DNA of 64,000 bases from a virus (Duplodnaviria > Caudoviricetes). A model generated the notes under the pieces. That model saw nothing but the letters and a program-made list of their open reading frames with translations, was not told the DNA's origin and did no database searches. The stretch lies in IMG/VR virus record IMGVR_UViG_3300012983_000001, positions 128,001 to 192,000 of that record; one strand, written 5' to 3'. The position numbers were made by a program, and so were the translations under genes. This document shows positions 56,488 to 63,601 of the stretch, piece by piece; the first letter of the stretch is position 1, and every line of letters starts with the position of its first letter.

Positions 56488-56514
56488 TCCTTTCTTATAA
56501 GTATCTTAATATAT

Positions 56515-56544
56515 AATATACCCGATAAGGTACCAGTTTTGCAA
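56515..56544 (-). promoter_or_regulatory. Promoter of the regulator/morphogenesis operon
   Basis: TTGCAA-18 nt-TATATT; overlaps the recurrent GTATATTATA motif. Confidence 0.5.
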
Positions 56545-56604
56545 CATAATATTACTAATTTGGGGCGAAGCCCCCGTTTTTTCCACTCTTTTTTTGTAAC
56601 ATCG

Positions 56605-56695
56605 TATGACAAAGGGCTCCAGAGAGTAACACTCTGGAGCCCTTGCCGTAGGAACAAATGCCTATAAACTTACACGAAGGAGAAGCCTATGCTTC
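56605..56695 (-). ncRNA. Candidate anti-SD small RNA 1 (~90 nt)
   Basis: Promoter at 56702-56730; body contains CUUCUCCUUCG; ends in a 13-bp hairpin (56608-56647); no ORF on this strand. Confidence 0.6.
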
Positions 56696-56701
56696 AATCT
56701 C

Positions 56702-56730
56702 ATCATAGCATGACTTTGGCCATTATGCAA
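56702..56730 (-). promoter_or_regulatory. sigmaA-type promoter of sRNA 1
   Basis: TTGCAT-17 nt-TATGAT with TGn extension. Confidence 0.7.
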
Positions 56731-56769
56731 GCAAATTTTTAATATATATATTTTTCAGACCAACGTTTA

Positions 56770-56856
56770 CAACAAAGACCAGCGAGGCTAATGCGAACCC
56801 CACTGGTCTTTTTAGTTGACTCGAAAAGGAATGTAGAAAGAATTATTCTCACCACA
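56770..56856 (-). ncRNA. Candidate anti-SD small RNA 2 (~85 nt)
   Basis: Extended -10 TGaTATTCT at 56863-56871; seed UUUCUACAUUCCUUU; terminator 56774-56811 whose G-U pairs work only on the minus strand. Confidence 0.55.
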
Positions 56857-56899
56857 TGTTAAAGAATATCACAGTTTCATTTAATAAACTACTGGAAAT

Positions 56900-57076
56900 C
56901 TATTCCTTATTAAAGTCTACTTTAAATAGAAACTGCTTAACCTCTTCGAACTCAAAGTTATGTACATCCCCAAGGACTTCTTTGACATGGTTATAAGCTG
57001 CAAGTAAATTTACATGATTGTCCTGAGAATATCGAAATGTCATTTCTGACACTTCTTCAAGTTCCAGATTTCTCAT
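56900..57076 (-). CDS. Small hypothetical protein (58 aa)
   Basis: Below the ORF-track cutoff; MRNLELEEVSEMTFRYSQ...VDFNKE; SD AGGAGGT and its own promoter. Confidence 0.7.
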   Translation of the reverse strand: MRNLELEEVSEMTFRYSQDNHVNLLAAYNHVKEVLGDVHNFEFEEVKQFLFKVDFNKE

Positions 57077-57100
57077 TATAAATTACCTCCTGTGTCTAAA

Positions 57101-57129
57101 GTTATATCACATTTTGTCACAAAAAGCAA
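57101..57129 (-). promoter_or_regulatory. sigmaA-type promoter of the 58-aa gene
   Basis: TTGCTT-17 nt-TATAAC with TGn extension. Confidence 0.7.
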
Positions 57130-57145
57130 ATTTCACTCTATTATT

Positions 57146-57192
57146 CGGACCGTAGGTCCGTTTTGTTATGGTTGTATCGGGCCGTAGGCCCG
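57146..57192. repeat. Two 15-bp palindromes CGG(A/G)CC-GTA-GG(T/C)CCG, 32 bp apart
   Basis: 57146-57160 and 57178-57192, with a compensatory A-T to G-C change between copies. Confidence 0.85.
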
Positions 57193-57427
57193 CTTAACCA
57201 TGGGCGCAAAAGAAACACTAATCGTTGCAACAGATATATAGTCGCAAAATAAAACCCACCAGTTGCTTTACATTTTGGTACATGATACTCGAACAGATGT
57301 TCGGCCAGTATAGGGTAAATTTATATATATATTTTTGGGGGGAACCTGCTTTTAATCTTGTATGATGTTCTTTAGTTCGATACCCCACCCTATGTGTGGA
57401 AGACAATAAAGATTGGAGGAATTGGTT

Positions 57428-57874
57428 ATGAAGAAACATGAGAAAAGATACCATGAAGTAGTTAGTAACAAAGTAGCAAGTGTATATGTTCAGGAGTTTT
57501 ATTTTCCAAAGTTTAGAACATTCACAGATGGCACAGATACTATTGAAACACAGTACACTGAGAATATCAGTATTTGTGTAGGTAAGAGTAGACGTGCTAA
57601 TAATGATTGGTTCAATGGTGATAAGACTGGAGATAAGATACACAATAAATCTACAGGTAATATCGCTACATTCATGAGTATCGTTGATACCTTGACACTG
57701 CATATCCTTGAGTTCCATCACATCTATGGATACTACTGTTGTACATTCACCCCTACTGATGATAAGAGACGTAAGACCTATCTTAAGGCTATCAAGCATC
57801 TGTGTAGGGAGTGCTATCTCACATTCAAGTATGTAATATGTGATGATAACGAACTAATGATATGGATTGAATAA
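57428..57874 (+). CDS. Early hypothetical protein
   Basis: ATG 57428 with SD GGAGGA; first plus-strand gene. Confidence 0.7.
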   Translation: MKKHEKRYHEVVSNKVASVYVQEFYFPKFRTFTDGTDTIETQYTENISICVGKSRRANNDWFNGDKTGDKIHNKSTGNIATFMSIVDTLTLHILEFHHIYGYYCCTFTPTDDKRRKTYLKAIKHLCRECYLTFKYVICDDNELMIWIE

Positions 57875-57897
57875 CTCACATTAAAGGAGGGATTGTT

Positions 57898-58089
57898 ATG
57901 AATAACCGCATAACCCTGTCTCATGATGACATGATGCTTATCGTATCTGCATTAGCTGCATATCCAGGTGTAGTTAAGAAAATGCATCACAATGATGATT
58001 CCATGGGTGACATTACCCGTGCTACGAACCAGTGTGTCGAAATCGGTATGAAGATTATTGACATGATGGATGCAATCGAGCAGCAGTAG
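57898..58089 (+). CDS. Early hypothetical protein (63 aa)
   Basis: SD AAAGGAGG. Confidence 0.7.
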   Translation: MNNRITLSHDDMMLIVSALAAYPGVVKKMHHNDDSMGDITRATNQCVEIGMKIIDMMDAIEQQ

Positions 58090-58093
58090 TGTA

Positions 58094-58120
58094 TGTCCTG
58101 AGCATGACAATAAAAGGCTC
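58094..58120 (+). ncRNA. H-type pseudoknot motif, copy 1
   Basis: S1 TGTC/GACA, S2 GAGC/GCTC, A-rich loop 3. Confidence 0.6.
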
Positions 58121-58184
58121 TCTCCTCTGGGGGAGACTAAATAGGCAGTTAGGCCCAGAGCGTTAGTAGAAATACTAGGTCTGC
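58121..58184 (+). ncRNA. Pistol self-cleaving ribozyme
   Basis: TCTCC TCTGGG GGAGA CTAAATA G GCAG TTAGG CCCAGA GCG TTAGTA GAAA TACTAG GT CTGC. P1, 6-bp pseudoknot, P2, P3 and the conserved AAAUA, GCG and GU are all present. Predicted cut G58179/U58180. Confidence 0.93.
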
Positions 58185-58240
58185 ACACAACAAAAAATAA
58201 AATAAAGACCCATGTGTAGAGGGCAGATTGGAGAAACCAT

Positions 58241-58510
58241 ATGAGTTATCAGATGAACAACCAGGAAAACGAAGCTATGAGACAGTACAGCTACAGAGAA
58301 CGTAGTCGTATAGCAAGAGAGAAAAAGAGACAGGAATTTATCTCTAACTTTATTGCTGTTGTAGTAGGTGTACTCATGATGCTTGCATTTGCGTATGCAT
58401 TCGTATATGCACTTGCTAATGAACCGTTTAATGCACCTGTTGCTAATCCAGCGTACATAAACGAGTATGAAACACCAGATGTACCAAGATACATCTACCC
58501 TGAAGAGTAG
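58241..58510 (+). CDS. Small single-TM membrane protein flanked by two ribozymes
   Basis: Basic patch followed by FIAVVVGVLMMLAFAYAFVYALA. Confidence 0.7.
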   Translation: MSYQMNNQENEAMRQYSYRERSRIAREKKRQEFISNFIAVVVGVLMMLAFAYAFVYALANEPFNAPVANPAYINEYETPDVPRYIYPEE

Positions 58511-58517
58511 TACTACA

Positions 58518-58592
58518 TGCAGAGTGGCATAGGGACTGTACATCCCTATGTTAATGCACTATCCCATATAGGGATACTGGTCACAAGTCCAG
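58518..58592 (+). ncRNA. Twister ribozyme, circularly permuted (P5-type order)
   Basis: TGCA-GAGTG, P1 hairpin GCATAGGGA/TCCCTATGT, TAA-TGCAC, P3 TATCCC/GGGATA, P4 CTGG-TCACAAGT-CCAG; T1 CAC/GTG, T2 AC/GT. P2/T2 is 1 nt shorter than consensus. Predicted cut U58552/A58553. Confidence 0.75.
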
Positions 58593-58623
58593 GTGCAAAT
58601 ATAATCCTAAGGAGGATAAGGTT

Positions 58624-59298
58624 ATGAAGATTAAGAATCTGTATTATGGCATTATCGGTCTTATTGCTTACTACAAGCAGACCAAGGCAAACAAGGTTAA
58701 TCTTAAGGCTACTAAAGCTAATAAGGTTGACGTAGTAACTGTTGATGATAGGGAATTAAGTATTCACTACATCCCTGACATGAATAAGCGTGGTGTTGCA
58801 TATGGAGCAATCTTTGTTTTCCCACATCTTGACAAAAAGACATTCATCGGTGTGGATGACAAATTCTATGCATTACCGCAGGAATTACAACAGGCAGTGA
58901 TTTACCATGAGGTAGGGCATTATGCACATGGTCACTTTAGTAACAAGGGGTTCCGCTATATCTGGCAACAGTGTGTACAGTTAGGCAAGATTGCTGTTGC
59001 TTCTGAAGACCAGAAGGCTAACCTGTTATACGAGTTTACCATGATGACTCGTAATGACAACGAGGAGTATGAAGCAGATGCCTATGCAGTTAATAAGGTA
59101 GGAGCTCATGCTGTTGCTGCTTTGCTCTTAACGTTCTATAGCTTGTACCCTAGTGAGGAACTTGCTATCAGATATCAAAAGGTTACTGGTGAAGCAATCG
59201 AAACAAGTAGTGCTTTTCTGGAGCTTAAGAAACAAATGGCACAACAATTTACTTCTATCTTTAAGGATGCTGAAGTAGTATCCATTGAGACTTTATAA
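58624..59298 (+). CDS. Zinc metalloprotease (M48/M56-like zincin)
   Basis: AVIYHEVGH and EYEADAYA motifs. Confidence 0.8.
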   Translation: MKIKNLYYGIIGLIAYYKQTKANKVNLKATKANKVDVVTVDDRELSIHYIPDMNKRGVAYGAIFVFPHLDKKTFIGVDDKFYALPQELQQAVIYHEVGHYAHGHFSNKGFRYIWQQCVQLGKIAVASEDQKANLLYEFTMMTRNDNEEYEADAYAVNKVGAHAVAALLLTFYSLYPSEELAIRYQKVTGEAIETSSAFLELKKQMAQQFTSIFKDAEVVSIETL

Positions 59299-59321
59299 AC
59301 CTAGATTACATTAAGGAAAGG

Positions 59322-59951
59322 ATGGTAGTTATGATGAACACTACAACAAACAAGGTATTGGAGAAACTAGTAAACGCAGGCGCACTGGAAAGAATCGCAA
59401 AGGACTTAAAGCTAGACAAGGTTCCAACTATTGTATATGACGGAGAAGGTGATTACGTCATGGCAGCGTCTGGACAAGTATGGGCTCGTGGTAATCTGTT
59501 CCATGAAACAGTTACAAAGACTGAAAGTGACTATGTTATTCATGTCAACACCAAGGCCTTAGCTGATACTCAGAGACAGTATTGTATGCTGACTTTAAAC
59601 CCTCAGATTATGACAGACATTACACTGATATTACTGAAACACGAATGCCGTCATATCTGGCAATATCAGAATCAGTTCACGGTTGGTGATGTTCGCGAAA
59701 AATTCTCTTTTCGTTTAGAAGCTCATGGAGATTCCAAGGTAGAGCGTGATGCAAACGAGTACGCAGTACAGAAAAGCAAAGGCAGACGCTATATCTTAGC
59801 TCTTCATGCAAAAATGTTACAAGAGAAAAACCCATTCTCATTTGGACCTTCTACAGAAGAGATACATTTAAACCATGAGGTAATGCGTGCGTATTTTCCT
59901 ATTGCACATTACATAATCAATAAACTTACAGGAGGTAAGAAATATGTATAA
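59322..59951 (+). CDS. Zinc metalloprotease-like protein (HExxH)
   Basis: LLKHECRHIWQY and VERDANEYA. Confidence 0.75.
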   Translation: MVVMMNTTTNKVLEKLVNAGALERIAKDLKLDKVPTIVYDGEGDYVMAASGQVWARGNLFHETVTKTESDYVIHVNTKALADTQRQYCMLTLNPQIMTDITLILLKHECRHIWQYQNQFTVGDVREKFSFRLEAHGDSKVERDANEYAVQKSKGRRYILALHAKMLQEKNPFSFGPSTEEIHLNHEVMRAYFPIAHYIINKLTGGKKYV

Positions 59952-60258
59952 GATTAGTCAAATTGTACAGGACTGTGTCAACGGTTGCACTGCAAACAAT
60001 CTCATCGAAGACTACATGCATTTCATGATTAACTATTATGTTAATACTGAACATGGTCAGGGTACCAAGTATCGTTGTTTCGTATACAACATACAAGACT
60101 TAGAGGTCAATCTCTATCATATTATTAGAGAAAATATCTCTCCTACTACTGATGTTGTTATTACAGACATCACCGTAAAAGACAGTGGCGAAATCATTCG
60201 TGTGAACCCTAAGAATTATTCTTACAGCATGGACTATTTCATGGATATGCTTCGTTAA
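59944..60258 (+). CDS. Early hypothetical protein
   Basis: SD AGGAGGT; overlaps the upstream stop. Confidence 0.65.
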   Translation: MYKISQIVQDCVNGCTANNLIEDYMHFMINYYVNTEHGQGTKYRCFVYNIQDLEVNLYHIIRENISPTTDVVITDITVKDSGEIIRVNPKNYSYSMDYFMDMLR

Positions 60259-60260
60259 TC

Positions 60261-60316
60261 ATCTTCTATTCTTTGAGGGCATCACAATGAGTGGTGTCCT
60301 TTCTAGTGTAGAAGAT
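60261..60316 (+). other. Long bulged stem-loop (RNase III-like processing site candidate)
   Basis: ATCTTCTA/TAGAAGAT lower stem, internal loop, GAGGGCATCAC/GTGGTGTCCTT upper stem; no U-tract. Confidence 0.55.
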
Positions 60317-60346
60317 ACACTAATTCACTATAAGGAGGTGAGCAAT

Positions 60347-60499
60347 ATGACTACTACTTATACCAAGCACACACCAACAAAAGAACCTAAGAAAACATAT
60401 AATAACCATGCTAGTTTTGGTTTTTATCTTAGAACTGGTGTGCCATACAATCCTCGTATGAGCGAGAGAGAAAAGAAGGCTTTAATAAGCCGCAGATAG
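60347..60499 (+). CDS. Small basic early protein (50 aa)
   Basis: SD AAGGAGGTG before MTTTYTK; the upstream ATG in the track lies inside the hairpin. Confidence 0.65.
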   Translation: MTTTYTKHTPTKEPKKTYNNHASFGFYLRTGVPYNPRMSEREKKALISRR

Positions 60500-60504
60500 C
60501 ACTG

Positions 60505-60533
60505 GGTCCTGGAGTATGACCTAAAACTGCTTC
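60505..60533 (+). ncRNA. H-type pseudoknot motif, copy 2
   Basis: S1 GGTC/GACC, S2 GGAGTA/TGCTTC, loop TAAAAC. Confidence 0.6.
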
Positions 60534-60576
60534 TGTTACCAGTAAACATCCTAACATGGATTGGAGGTGATACGCC

Positions 60577-60753
60577 ATGGATGTTGATATTACACTGTCT
60601 AGTATAGCTGTGACTTATATTAAGCATGGACTTATGAGACAAGAAGAACTGGAAGGACATAAAGACCTTCTAAAAGACTGCTTGAATAGACGCGCGATTC
60701 AAGTATTTAACAACGGCCACGAGTACGATACTCGCAAAGACTATTTTCTCTAA
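60577..60753 (+). CDS. Small early protein (58 aa)
   Basis: Below the track cutoff; SD GGAGGTGA; MDVDITLSSIAVTYIKHG...RKDYFL. Confidence 0.7.
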   Translation: MDVDITLSSIAVTYIKHGLMRQEELEGHKDLLKDCLNRRAIQVFNNGHEYDTRKDYFL

Positions 60754-60769
60754 GAAAGAGGTGTAGGTC

Positions 60770-61840
60770 ATGGAAGTATTAAATGTATACGTTGGCAAAG
60801 AACAGGTAAAGTTCGATTTAGGTAATCTATTGGGTGTTGATGTAGAGATATGGGATAAGCTTACATATCAGACTGCAAAGAAACATCAAGATTTAATTCC
60901 TGCGATTGAGATATGTATCGAGGATTGCCTTGGTACTGCGGTAAATATCGTAGATGAGGTTAGTTTTAAACTAGCCATTGCTGATTTAGTGAACATTATC
61001 CAAGGTGATAATGCAATAAATATTAAGGAGGATACTATTATGATGAACAACACTACTAACCAGAACATGGAAATGGCAATGGAAGAGATGCAGAAGAAGG
61101 CAGGCATCGGAGAATTACTCAAAGAAACAAAGGATGCAGTTATCCACGGAGTAATTTCTAAGACACACAAGACTAAGGAACAGTACGTACAGCAGGTTGA
61201 TGAATCTGCTAACGTGGTTAAGGGTGCAATGGTTGTTACTCTTGACAAGATGTCCGCAGTGCTTGGTTACAATGCTCTAAAGGAAAGTATCTTAGGCATC
61301 ATTGAAGCAGGTACTTGTAATGGCAAGACTGATTTATTCGCAATGGCCGAGGAATGCAGAAAGCGTATTGACCTTGAGGTTGAGACACTTCTTGCATGGG
61401 GTAGCGAAGAAGATTTCAGAAAGGCTGCACAGTTAAAAGCTTTATCTAAAGACCAGAGAGGCAAGTCTATCTTTGAAGCTTTAGTATCCATGTTAATTTG
61501 GATTGCTAAATGGGTAGCTAAGACACTCAGAAAATGGTTCCAGGTAGACAATGAGAAATCCATTATTGGTGCTCTTTGCCGTGCTCTTTCTGGTTTTGCT
61601 GCTGTGGTACGTGAAGGCGTTAAGTTAGTATGGCACACTGCAAAGTTTGGTGTAAGCTTTGTAATTGCTGGCGCTATTAAGCTTGGCGTGTGGATTATCA
61701 ATACATTTAAGACTTTCTGTGAAGGCATCAAAGGATGGTTTAACAAGAAGAATGAAATGATTGATGATGAGGAAGACCAGTTCTTCTTTGTTGCAGATGA
61801 AGAGGGCAATCTTGTAATTCCTGACGAAGACGAAGAATAA
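60770..61840 (+). CDS. Early hypothetical protein with amphipathic helices and acidic tail
   Basis: 356 aa; in-frame internal SD/ATG at 61040. Confidence 0.75.
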   Translation: MEVLNVYVGKEQVKFDLGNLLGVDVEIWDKLTYQTAKKHQDLIPAIEICIEDCLGTAVNIVDEVSFKLAIADLVNIIQGDNAINIKEDTIMMNNTTNQNMEMAMEEMQKKAGIGELLKETKDAVIHGVISKTHKTKEQYVQQVDESANVVKGAMVVTLDKMSAVLGYNALKESILGIIEAGTCNGKTDLFAMAEECRKRIDLEVETLLAWGSEEDFRKAAQLKALSKDQRGKSIFEALVSMLIWIAKWVAKTLRKWFQVDNEKSIIGALCRALSGFAAVVREGVKLVWHTAKFGVSFVIAGAIKLGVWIINTFKTFCEGIKGWFNKKNEMIDDEEDQFFFVADEEGNLVIPDEDEE

Positions 61841-61850
61841 TCGTCACTAC

Positions 61851-61891
61851 TAGTCCAATGGGTGTGTAAGACTATAAACTGCTATCACCCA
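61851..61891 (+). ncRNA. H-type pseudoknot motif, copy 3 (extended S2)
   Basis: S1 TAGTC/GACTA, S2 TGGGTG/CACCCA plus GTA/TGC, loop TAAAC. Confidence 0.6.
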
Positions 61892-61915
61892 TAACTACTA
61901 TACATATACATGAAC

Positions 61916-61974
61916 TATACTCCCTGGTGTTACTTGAATACGTTTACGGGTTATCTTTAACACCAGGGGGTATA
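61916..61974 (+). other. 17-bp stem-loop (RNase III-like candidate)
   Basis: TATACTCCCTGGTGTTA / TAACACCAGGGGGTATA with one G-U pair. Confidence 0.6.
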
Positions 61975-61998
61975 TGTATATATCCCACCTTAATGGTT

Positions 61999-62054
61999 TG
62001 CTGTCGTAGCGGTAAAAGTCCGTTACCTGATGATTGGCATGAGCCGAAACAGCA
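61999..62054 (+). ncRNA. Hammerhead ribozyme, type III
   Basis: TGCTG-TC-GTAGCGG TAAAAGT CCGTTAC-CTGATGA-TT-GGC ATGA GCC-GAAA-CAGCA. GUC triplet, cut after C62005; 2-nt insertion before stem II. Confidence 0.88.
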
Positions 62055-62152
62055 TCAGAGATTCTCACGCGGGGATGGTAAGGATAACATCGTTAAGACT
62101 TCCAAACACTATAAACTATTTTATGGGTTGATAACCCAGAAAGGAGTATAGC

Positions 62153-63025
62153 ATGAAACAGAAAACAACTACTAGTCATGCAAAGAAGGCGACTACTACA
62201 AGTAACGCCAAGACCGCAACCAACAACCAGAACACTACACAGGAGGTAGCTACTATGAAGAACGCAAACGTACACGCAACTGATTATTTATCCAAGGATA
62301 AGATTCGTGAAGAACTTAAAGTGCTCGGTATTGAGTTATCCAACTCTAAGTTCAAGAACACCAAGAGAGAAGTATTACTTGAGATGCTTGAAGCTAAGAA
62401 GGCAGAGACTACTACTGCTAATGCAACTAAGCCTGCTATGCCAATTGCACCTGTATCTACTGACATTCCTGTTGGTGATTTAGAGATTACCAAAGACAAT
62501 GCTCCTCAGGAGATTCCAGTAGAACAGGAACAACCGAAAAAGAGCACCGTACAGATTCTCTACGATGTAGTTGCTAACTGCTGTTACGTACAGTATTACA
62601 GCAAGAAGCAGGTTGCTAAGAACTATGTCAGCGATTATATGTTGAAGTCCTGTATTAACCATGTACTTCACGGCAAGTACTCCAAGGAAAAGAATGGACA
62701 GGATAATACATTCACGGATATTCAGCAGAAGCAGACCGAGTTCATTAAGGATAAGTTAATCCAGGCTGGTTTTGTTACCGAACATAAGGGTACAGGTTAT
62801 ATCATCAAGGCAAGACTCATGGCATGGTACTACGAGGGAGCTCTGAAGCTTCATGTTGTTTACAGATTCCGCTACGAAGATAAGTCCAAGGGCTATGTAG
62901 ACTACAAGGTAGACTTTGCTAAGAACGAGCTGCTTAATCTCCGTGACAACAAGGTTACCAAGCTGGATGATGCAGGCTGGGCTAAGGTTGATGCAACTCT
63001 CAACTTCAACAGAACTATGAAATAA
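62153..63025 (+). CDS. Early protein with HeH/Rho-N-like nucleic-acid-binding motif
   Basis: LSKDKIREELKVLGI...TKREVLLEML; SD AAAGGAG; second in-frame SD/ATG at 62255. Confidence 0.7.
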   Translation: MKQKTTTSHAKKATTTSNAKTATNNQNTTQEVATMKNANVHATDYLSKDKIREELKVLGIELSNSKFKNTKREVLLEMLEAKKAETTTANATKPAMPIAPVSTDIPVGDLEITKDNAPQEIPVEQEQPKKSTVQILYDVVANCCYVQYYSKKQVAKNYVSDYMLKSCINHVLHGKYSKEKNGQDNTFTDIQQKQTEFIKDKLIQAGFVTEHKGTGYIIKARLMAWYYEGALKLHVVYRFRYEDKSKGYVDYKVDFAKNELLNLRDNKVTKLDDAGWAKVDATLNFNRTMK

Positions 63026-63064
63026 TGCAACAGCTCCTGGATGTGCTGAAAGGAGGTGATTAAC

Positions 63065-63118
63065 ATGCACATTCAAAACCTTTACCAACCGCTTGCTCCC
63101 GCTTTCCCAAACTGGTAA
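63065..63118 (+). CDS. 17-aa micro-ORF MHIQNLYQPLAPAFPNW
   Basis: Near-perfect SD AAAGGAGGTGA upstream; followed by a GC hairpin at 63141-63162. Confidence 0.5.
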   Translation: MHIQNLYQPLAPAFPNW

Positions 63119-63187
63119 CCATAATACGATGATAATACAACAGCGCCCCGTTAGGGGCGCTGACTCCAAGAAAGGATGGTGCTTTAT

Positions 63188-63601
63188 ATGTCTTACAGTA
63201 TCTTTGACAAATGTCTTACCGCAGATGGTTGCAAATATTACTGCAACCAGGTGGCTAATCGTCTCGGCCTTAAGCCGTTCTTTTATTATTACGACAAGCT
63301 CAACAATCTTCAATTCCCTGGGAACTCTAATGTACATTCATTCAAGGAGTTTCGTGAATATGAGAGCTGGAGAATTAAGTTCAACTTAACTAATCCAGCT
63401 ACTATTAAGAAAGCAGGCCTTGATGAGTATGTATTGAAGCATAAGGAGCTTGCGTTCCATTTAACAATTAAGGGTTACTCTTTCCTGTTAATGTGCAAAT
63501 TCTCACAGCCTAACCATAATGAAGCTGCTTGTACTATACAGGAAACTGTTAAACCCATTTATATAGAAGAAACTAATGGCCAGTTAAGATTAAACTTATA
63601 A
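63188..63601 (+). CDS. Early hypothetical protein
   Basis: ORF in track (63176); likely start MSYSIF. Confidence 0.65.
   Translation: MSYSIFDKCLTADGCKYYCNQVANRLGLKPFFYYYDKLNNLQFPGNSNVHSFKEFREYESWRIKFNLTNPATIKKAGLDEYVLKHKELAFHLTIKGYSFLLMCKFSQPNHNEAACTIQETVKPIYIEETNGQLRLNL

Follow-up and report, generated by a model that had tools for sequence, protein, structure and literature searches.

What becomes of a phage message that its own ribozyme has cut just ahead of a gene? The role of phage pistol, twister, and hammerhead ribozymes is still open, and reviews suggest that polycistronic RNA is processed into pieces differing in stability (PMC6765202, PMC3088659). The question is raised here by a locus within a 64,000-nucleotide window, the whole stretch of DNA that was analysed, which comprises bases 128001–192000 of an IMG/VR phage record that is 208,433 bp long and has direct terminal repeats. 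Two ribozymes in the window score above their Rfam gathering scores, a pistol (RF02679) and a twister-P5 (RF02684). A permissive Rfam scan of 56500–63500 reveals no ribozyme beyond this pair, and the Rfam search of the other 146 kb of the genome returned only tRNAs, which leaves the two as the sole Rfam ribozymes in 208 kb. At 62000–62052, a type III hammerhead candidate displays GUC, CUGAUGA, and GAAA motifs and a closed stem I; its stem II looks short or irregular, and it has no Rfam hammerhead match at E ≤ 1.

The pistol ribozyme occupies 58121–58184 of the + strand and matches model positions 1–68 of RF02679 at 44.7 bits, above the gathering score of 34.5 (E = 6.3e-5 in 64 kb; E = 5e-8 in the search of its own genome). 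The match is full-length, and zero non-canonical pairs are marked in the cmscan alignment. P1 comprises 5 bp (UCUCC 58121–25/GGAGA 58132–36), P2 comprises 4 bp (GCAG 58145–48/CUGC 58181–84), and P3 comprises 6 bp, one of them U-G (58163–68/58173–78). The P1 loop forms a fully complementary 6-bp pseudoknot with the strand that intervenes between P2 and P3 (UCUGGG 58126–31/CCCAGA 58154–59); this pseudoknot lies outside the Rfam pistol covariance model, and the other pistols used obey this rule of complementarity as well. The conserved unpaired nucleotides are found as AAAUA 58139–43 and GCG 58160–62, and the segments UAAAUA, GAGCGU, and GGU match the consensus letters of the Rfam alignment. By Rfam and by the pair lists, every element stands where a first-pass annotation of this DNA had named it, and the ribozyme is a further representative of the known pistol class. 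Alignment to the consensus GGU predicts cleavage between G58179 and U58180 on the + strand. This register (Rfam 3′ end = cut + 4) is the same in 17 of 17 other pistols checked, and the predicted 3′ product begins at U58180 with the 5′-OH that pistol cleavage, which also yields a 2′,3′-cyclic phosphate, leaves on its 3′ product (PMC4604425, PMC8782182).

In terms of gene context, the pistol follows a 63-aa ORF (57898–58089) and precedes an 89-aa ORF (58241–58510, + strand) that encodes one hydrophobic helix and has a Shine-Dalgarno GGAG ahead of it at 58231–34 (+ strand), in a leader whose start the pistol cut would set. Beyond the 89-aa gene lies the twister-P5 and, downstream of the twister, a 224-aa ORF (58624–59298). 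The start-codon distance heuristic is crude and gives artefactual zeros, and it was used qualitatively only. None of the 63-, 89-, and 224-aa proteins received a family assignment above threshold in Pfam or PHROGs; the 89-aa protein has a sub-threshold SecE-like Pfam match and no PHROGs match. GC content around the pistol site is ∼39%. The pistol is separated from the stop codon of the 63-aa ORF by 27 nt (58094–58120) that could form a short GAGC/GCUC stem. As neither a + strand terminator-like site nor a strong promoter was found between the upstream gene and the pistol, the locus is most simply read as a canonical pistol, with the twister behind it, internal to a polycistronic phage transcript.

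The twister-P5 (58518–58592, + strand) is located 334 nt downstream of the pistol and matches model positions 1–58 of RF02684 at 47.1 bits, where the gathering score is 37.6; its fold has z = −3.5. From the consensus UAA, its cut is predicted between U58552 and A58553 on the + strand. Cleavage by both ribozymes would free a 373-nt RNA (58180–58552) carrying only the 89-aa gene, and both ends of this RNA are predicted to be structured, the 3′ end being closed by the 9-bp hairpin of the twister (58526–34/58544–52). The predicted twister 3′ product begins AAUGCAC, in which UGCAC 58555–59 can pair with GUGCA 58593–97 just beyond the ribozyme; this pairing would again recapture a strand of a ribozyme helix and leave a 2-nt overhang.

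It is at the 5′ end of the bracketed RNA that a second structure comes into view. The first eight nucleotides of the product, UCUGCACA (58180–87), can form eight consecutive pairs, one of them G-U, with UGUGUAGA (58213–20), giving a hairpin on the + strand (58180–58220) that is blunt at U58180-A58220 and encloses an A-rich 25-nt loop (58188–58212). This hairpin is the RNAfold minimum-free-energy fold of 58180–58220 (−6.5 kcal/mol), 58180–58228 (−7.3 kcal/mol), and 58180–58245 (−8.9 kcal/mol), so the blunt pairing proposed for the new 5′ end is also the predicted fold of the product. The predicted helix begins at product nucleotide 1, and the GGAG at 58231–34 is placed outside it, 11 nt past the stem. 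The 5′ arm consists of U58180, the CUGC of P2, and ACA, and thus contains the 3′ strand of P2. Hairpin and P2 are mutually exclusive, as the first-pass annotation had also held, and the hairpin is the stronger in nearest-neighbour terms: on a background of P1 and P3, the hairpin is worth −7.3 kcal/mol, compared with −3.6 kcal/mol for P2, in a comparison of secondary structure only that excludes the pseudoknot and tertiary contacts. A second, weaker possible partner of UCUGC 58180–84 is GCAGA at 58223–27 (+ strand), which nearly duplicates the P2 5′ strand and appears paired in the predicted fold of a 161-nt precursor. A hairpin that recaptures the P2 3′ strand is undescribed in the pistol literature considered here, a scope that leaves outside Weinberg 2015 and, on pistol ligation, Lihanova & Weinberg 2021.

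The reading that we prefer, tentatively and with somewhat less than even confidence, is that a pistol within a polycistronic message is followed by a blunt post-cleavage hairpin that takes the P2 strand, hides the new 5′ end, and leaves the Shine-Dalgarno sequence open. In the corresponding mechanism, pistol and twister would both cut, giving the 373-nt RNA with the 89-aa gene alone. After the pistol cut, the 3′ product would be held by the 4-bp P2 helix alone, and its first eight nucleotides would re-pair with 58213–20 into the blunt hairpin. This refolding would remove the P2 strand and so make the cut irreversible. The blunt hairpin would present no single-stranded 5′ end on which a 5′–3′ exonuclease could load, offsetting the vulnerability of the 5′-OH, while the Shine-Dalgarno sequence 11 nt past the stem would stay open.

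Two earlier suggestions are modified by this analysis. The first-pass annotation had credited the 5′-OH, together with the terminal stem, with hindering RNase J-type decay; the 5′-OH part of this claim is not supported, as the 5′-OH product of glmS is degraded by RNase J1 in Bacillus subtilis (PMC3328962, PMC11780869), and it is the predicted terminal stem alone, not the 5′-OH, that could give such protection. The B. subtilis setting that had been envisaged is itself an assumption about the host. The suggestion that the hairpin drives product release survives in part. The greater predicted strength of the hairpin relative to P2 speaks for it, but the same strength means that the hairpin can compete in the uncut precursor and slow or inhibit cleavage, and with a P2 of 4 bp the product should come away even without a hairpin.

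We then consider how far the hairpin differs from what chance would supply. When the 53-nt leader was dinucleotide-shuffled 20,000 times, 0.26% of the shuffles had a blunt run of at least 8 bp from nucleotide 1, and such a run starts at 2.05% of all + strand positions in the window; a hairpin at this fixed, cut-defined position is unlikely by chance. Broader measures give a weaker signal: the pairing probability of product nucleotides 1–5 is 0.97, compared with 0.57 in shuffles (p ∼0.06). Against a selected hairpin, the 66-nt fold of the product leader is unremarkable (z = −1.08); trimming the stretch so that it starts and stops with the stem gives z = −3.7, but this value is post hoc. That the pistol is active and the 8-bp complementarity downstream of it fortuitous is a serious possibility, if on balance a doubtful one. 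The shuffle and positional frequencies argue against coincidence and the leader fold argues for it, and the comparisons that follow also bear on both sides.

Comparison with related loci offers no variation from which conservation of the stem could be read. On contigs from four further samples, the 89-aa protein is unchanged, the 154-nt intergenic sequence is identical to that of the window, and the pistol motif is likewise identical; these copies are 100% identical. The 89-aa protein has only three relatives (80, 75, and 43% identity), and none of the three genes is accompanied by a pistol, a twister, or any Rfam ribozyme at E ≤ 0.1. Upstream of the relatives' genes, a gap of 12–19 nt or unrelated sequence is found in place of the pistol. 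The absence of both ribozymes from the closest relatives indicates that pistol and twister are a lineage-specific acquisition or loss. For the upstream 63-aa protein, zero relatives were found; the 89-aa protein had no match among the viral contigs scanned, and a blastn search against cultured phages returned none. In the two closest relatives, the gap that corresponds to the twister is filled by a different conserved stretch of ∼115 nt (L188:364–485 and L189:3267–3387), which has long complementary arms (GUAUUACU...AGUAAUAC) and no Rfam match at E ≤ 0.1.

For the comparison with other pistols, a terminal hairpin was defined as a helix of at least 4 bp whose first paired nucleotide is product nucleotide 1 or 2 in the minimum-free-energy fold. 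Pattern searches of viral, metagenome, and genome collections supplied the pistols of a first sample, with cut sites assigned by P3, P2, and pseudoknot rules; 226 pistols gave 76 non-redundant 3′ products in 61 lineages, or 60 without the window. A terminal hairpin was found in 20 of these 60 lineages. The number expected was 10.6 ± 3.0 when the 5′ pentamers (heads) were swapped, 11.6 ± 3.5 at other offsets (20 was reached in 2 of 49), and 13.1–13.6 ± 2.8 when each product's own tail was shuffled (∼1 in 100 reach 20). The enrichment persisted whether 40, 60, or 80 nt were folded. The head-swap control probably overstates the enrichment, the swapped heads and tails differing in base composition, and we therefore rely on the own-tail shuffles and the positional controls. 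An initial shuffle test of 32 sequences had given no overall trend (0.43 versus 0.39).

The enrichment in the first sample was not replicated in a second one. Built from Rfam coordinates only, the second sample drew 20 further non-redundant products from 50 viral records, and 3 of the 20 have a terminal hairpin, compared with 4.5 expected. Pooling of the two samples yields 23 of 80 against 18.1 ± 3.2 expected (p ∼0.09). At this value, a family-wide terminal-hairpin rule is not established, and the family-wide support for the terminal hairpin as a general module is only suggestive. These results weigh on the side of a fortuitous pairing in the window: chance alone gives a terminal hairpin in about one-fifth of pistol products (13–14 of 60 in shuffles), and the pooled test over 80 lineages is non-significant. 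The loop points the same way: of the 20 terminal helices that the first sample contains, 12 have a span of at most 20 nt, and the 25-nt loop of the window is atypical beside the tight loops of the convincing cases.

The individual lineages argue in the opposite direction. Record G002 (L397, 13376–16050) contains five pistols within 2.4 kb, each of the five followed by a different tetraloop hairpin that begins at product nucleotide 1 or 2, with the common leader AACCAAGGGAGAGAACAUG after each. In a human-gut pistol family, the product of most variants begins U-UUAGCA-GUU-UGCUAA; in a sister lineage, in which the P2 5′ strand has changed from GUAA to GUGU, the product instead folds into the blunt hairpin UACAUUAU-UUU-AUAAUGUA, with homologous sequence downstream. 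Judged from these sequences, terminal hairpins appear convincingly to be maintained in some lineages, namely, the G002 array and the human-gut family with its two hairpin solutions, and the keeping of comparable hairpins despite sequence turnover speaks against coincidence as a sufficient account. In record G017, an array of seven pistols, such hairpins are mostly absent. A metagenome scan for pistols with the CCCAGA pseudoknot returned more than 119 contigs, and the P2 and leader of the window occur in none among the matches listed.

Several further features of these pistols were observed. The human-gut family is very abundant (>119 contigs, L069–L187, e.g., L087, L136, L137, and L145), and ∼60 conserved nucleotides follow its hairpin (AGAAGCC...GGGCUUGCCGUAGUAACC) without an Rfam family match. 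Several of its contigs carry the same pistol twice, 7.7–10.5 kb apart; in L136, the copies lie at both contig ends, and the contig may represent a circular element of ∼8.6 kb. In a single Gastranaerophilales MAG (CALUWA01...), pistol-pattern matches are found on many contigs (L283, L292, L294, L297, L305, L321, L327, L332, L338, L347, and L348), which suggests a multi-copy element. Within ∼6 kb, the L056 record (G025) combines 7 type II hammerheads with 2 pistols, and the L225 record (G049) has a pistol and a twister-P5 ∼1.3 kb apart, the pairing of classes found in the window.

One generalization of these findings is that a subset of phage lineages have pistols with a built-in accessory strand farther downstream, by which the P2 3′ strand is recaptured into a 5′-terminal hairpin directly after cleavage, the window hairpin being a long-loop member of this subset; we regard the generalization as unlikely. 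If such a module were real, the cut could not be reversed and a 5′-OH end sensitive to RNase J would become a protected one; the module would be a natural RiboJ-like insulator, and it would give the first concrete handle on the purpose of phage pistol ribozymes. For the window alone, the meaning is modest: a pistol and a twister are added to those already known, with a hairpin that modest statistics and similar designs in some other phages render plausible and that is unproven.

Quite improbable, in our estimation, is a second alternative, in which the hairpin acts as a regulator and not as an end protector: by competing with P2, it would tune cleavage, confining it to a short kinetic window in which part of the RNA is cut and the rest stays polycistronic. 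The mutual exclusion of the two helices and the 3.7 kcal/mol by which the hairpin is the more favourable in secondary structure are what such a competitor would show, and in the predicted 161-nt precursor fold the P2 3′ strand is paired to sequence farther downstream instead of to its P2 partner. The energy model, however, takes no account of the stability that the active fold gains from the pseudoknot and from tertiary contacts. The ribozyme also folds first, since 29 nt separate P2 from the 3′ arm, and regulation needs no blunt helix, yet the helix is blunt. A decayed, inactive pistol that makes no cut is highly improbable: its 44.7 bits fall below the 55–78 bits of the 17 other pistols checked and the relatives of the 89-aa gene manage without a pistol, but the match covers all 68 model positions with canonical pairs only and scores higher than the gathering score, the 6-bp pseudoknot is intact though the covariance model does not include it, and the motif is identical in the contigs from four further samples.

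The preferred reading, a post-cleavage hairpin that hides the 5′ end of a single-gene message, can be set beside four known systems. The pistol class was discovered through its proximity to phage genes and to other ribozyme classes (PMC4604425), and the ribozyme of the window shares with that class (RF02679; Weinberg et al. 2015; Harris et al. 2015, PMC4604425) the P1-P2-P3 architecture, the 6-bp pseudoknot, the conserved linker and GCG, the G-U cleavage step, the phage context, and an adjoining ribozyme of another class. Its core is without any difference; the published consensus stops at P2, whereas the hairpin extends beyond it. Clustered hammerheads on either side of single prophage genes have been known since Perreault et al. 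2011 (PMC3088659). As in those clusters, ribozymes flank one gene without an assigned function in a longer phage transcript, which implies single-gene mRNAs; here, however, a pistol is combined with a ribozyme of another class, a twister-P5, and the two enclose only one gene.

A contrast in the fate of the cut end is provided by glmS, whose accessible 5′-OH end marks the mRNA for degradation by RNase J1 (PMC3328962, citing Collins et al. 2007; PMC11780869). In both systems, self-cleavage puts a 5′-OH end on the coding fragment, but the end considered here is predicted to be buried in a helix, and the outcome could be the opposite. If P2-strand hairpins do stabilise cut mRNA, they would explain how phage messages can be cut without exposure to 5′ exonucleases.

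The locus also resembles RiboJ, an sTRSV hammerhead joined to a 23-nt hairpin, whose authors suggest that mRNA stability may be increased by the terminal hairpin that cleavage leaves behind (PMC6206723). In both, a ribozyme and its cut are followed by a 5′ hairpin, a ribosome-binding site, and a gene, in this order. RiboJ is engineered and uses a hammerhead, whereas the hairpin predicted here reuses the P2 strand of the ribozyme itself and has a 25-nt loop. If the preferred reading is true, such loci would supply natural, compact ribozyme-insulator parts for synthetic biology, and by analogy the arrangement in the window may be regarded as a natural counterpart of the synthetic RiboJ insulator.
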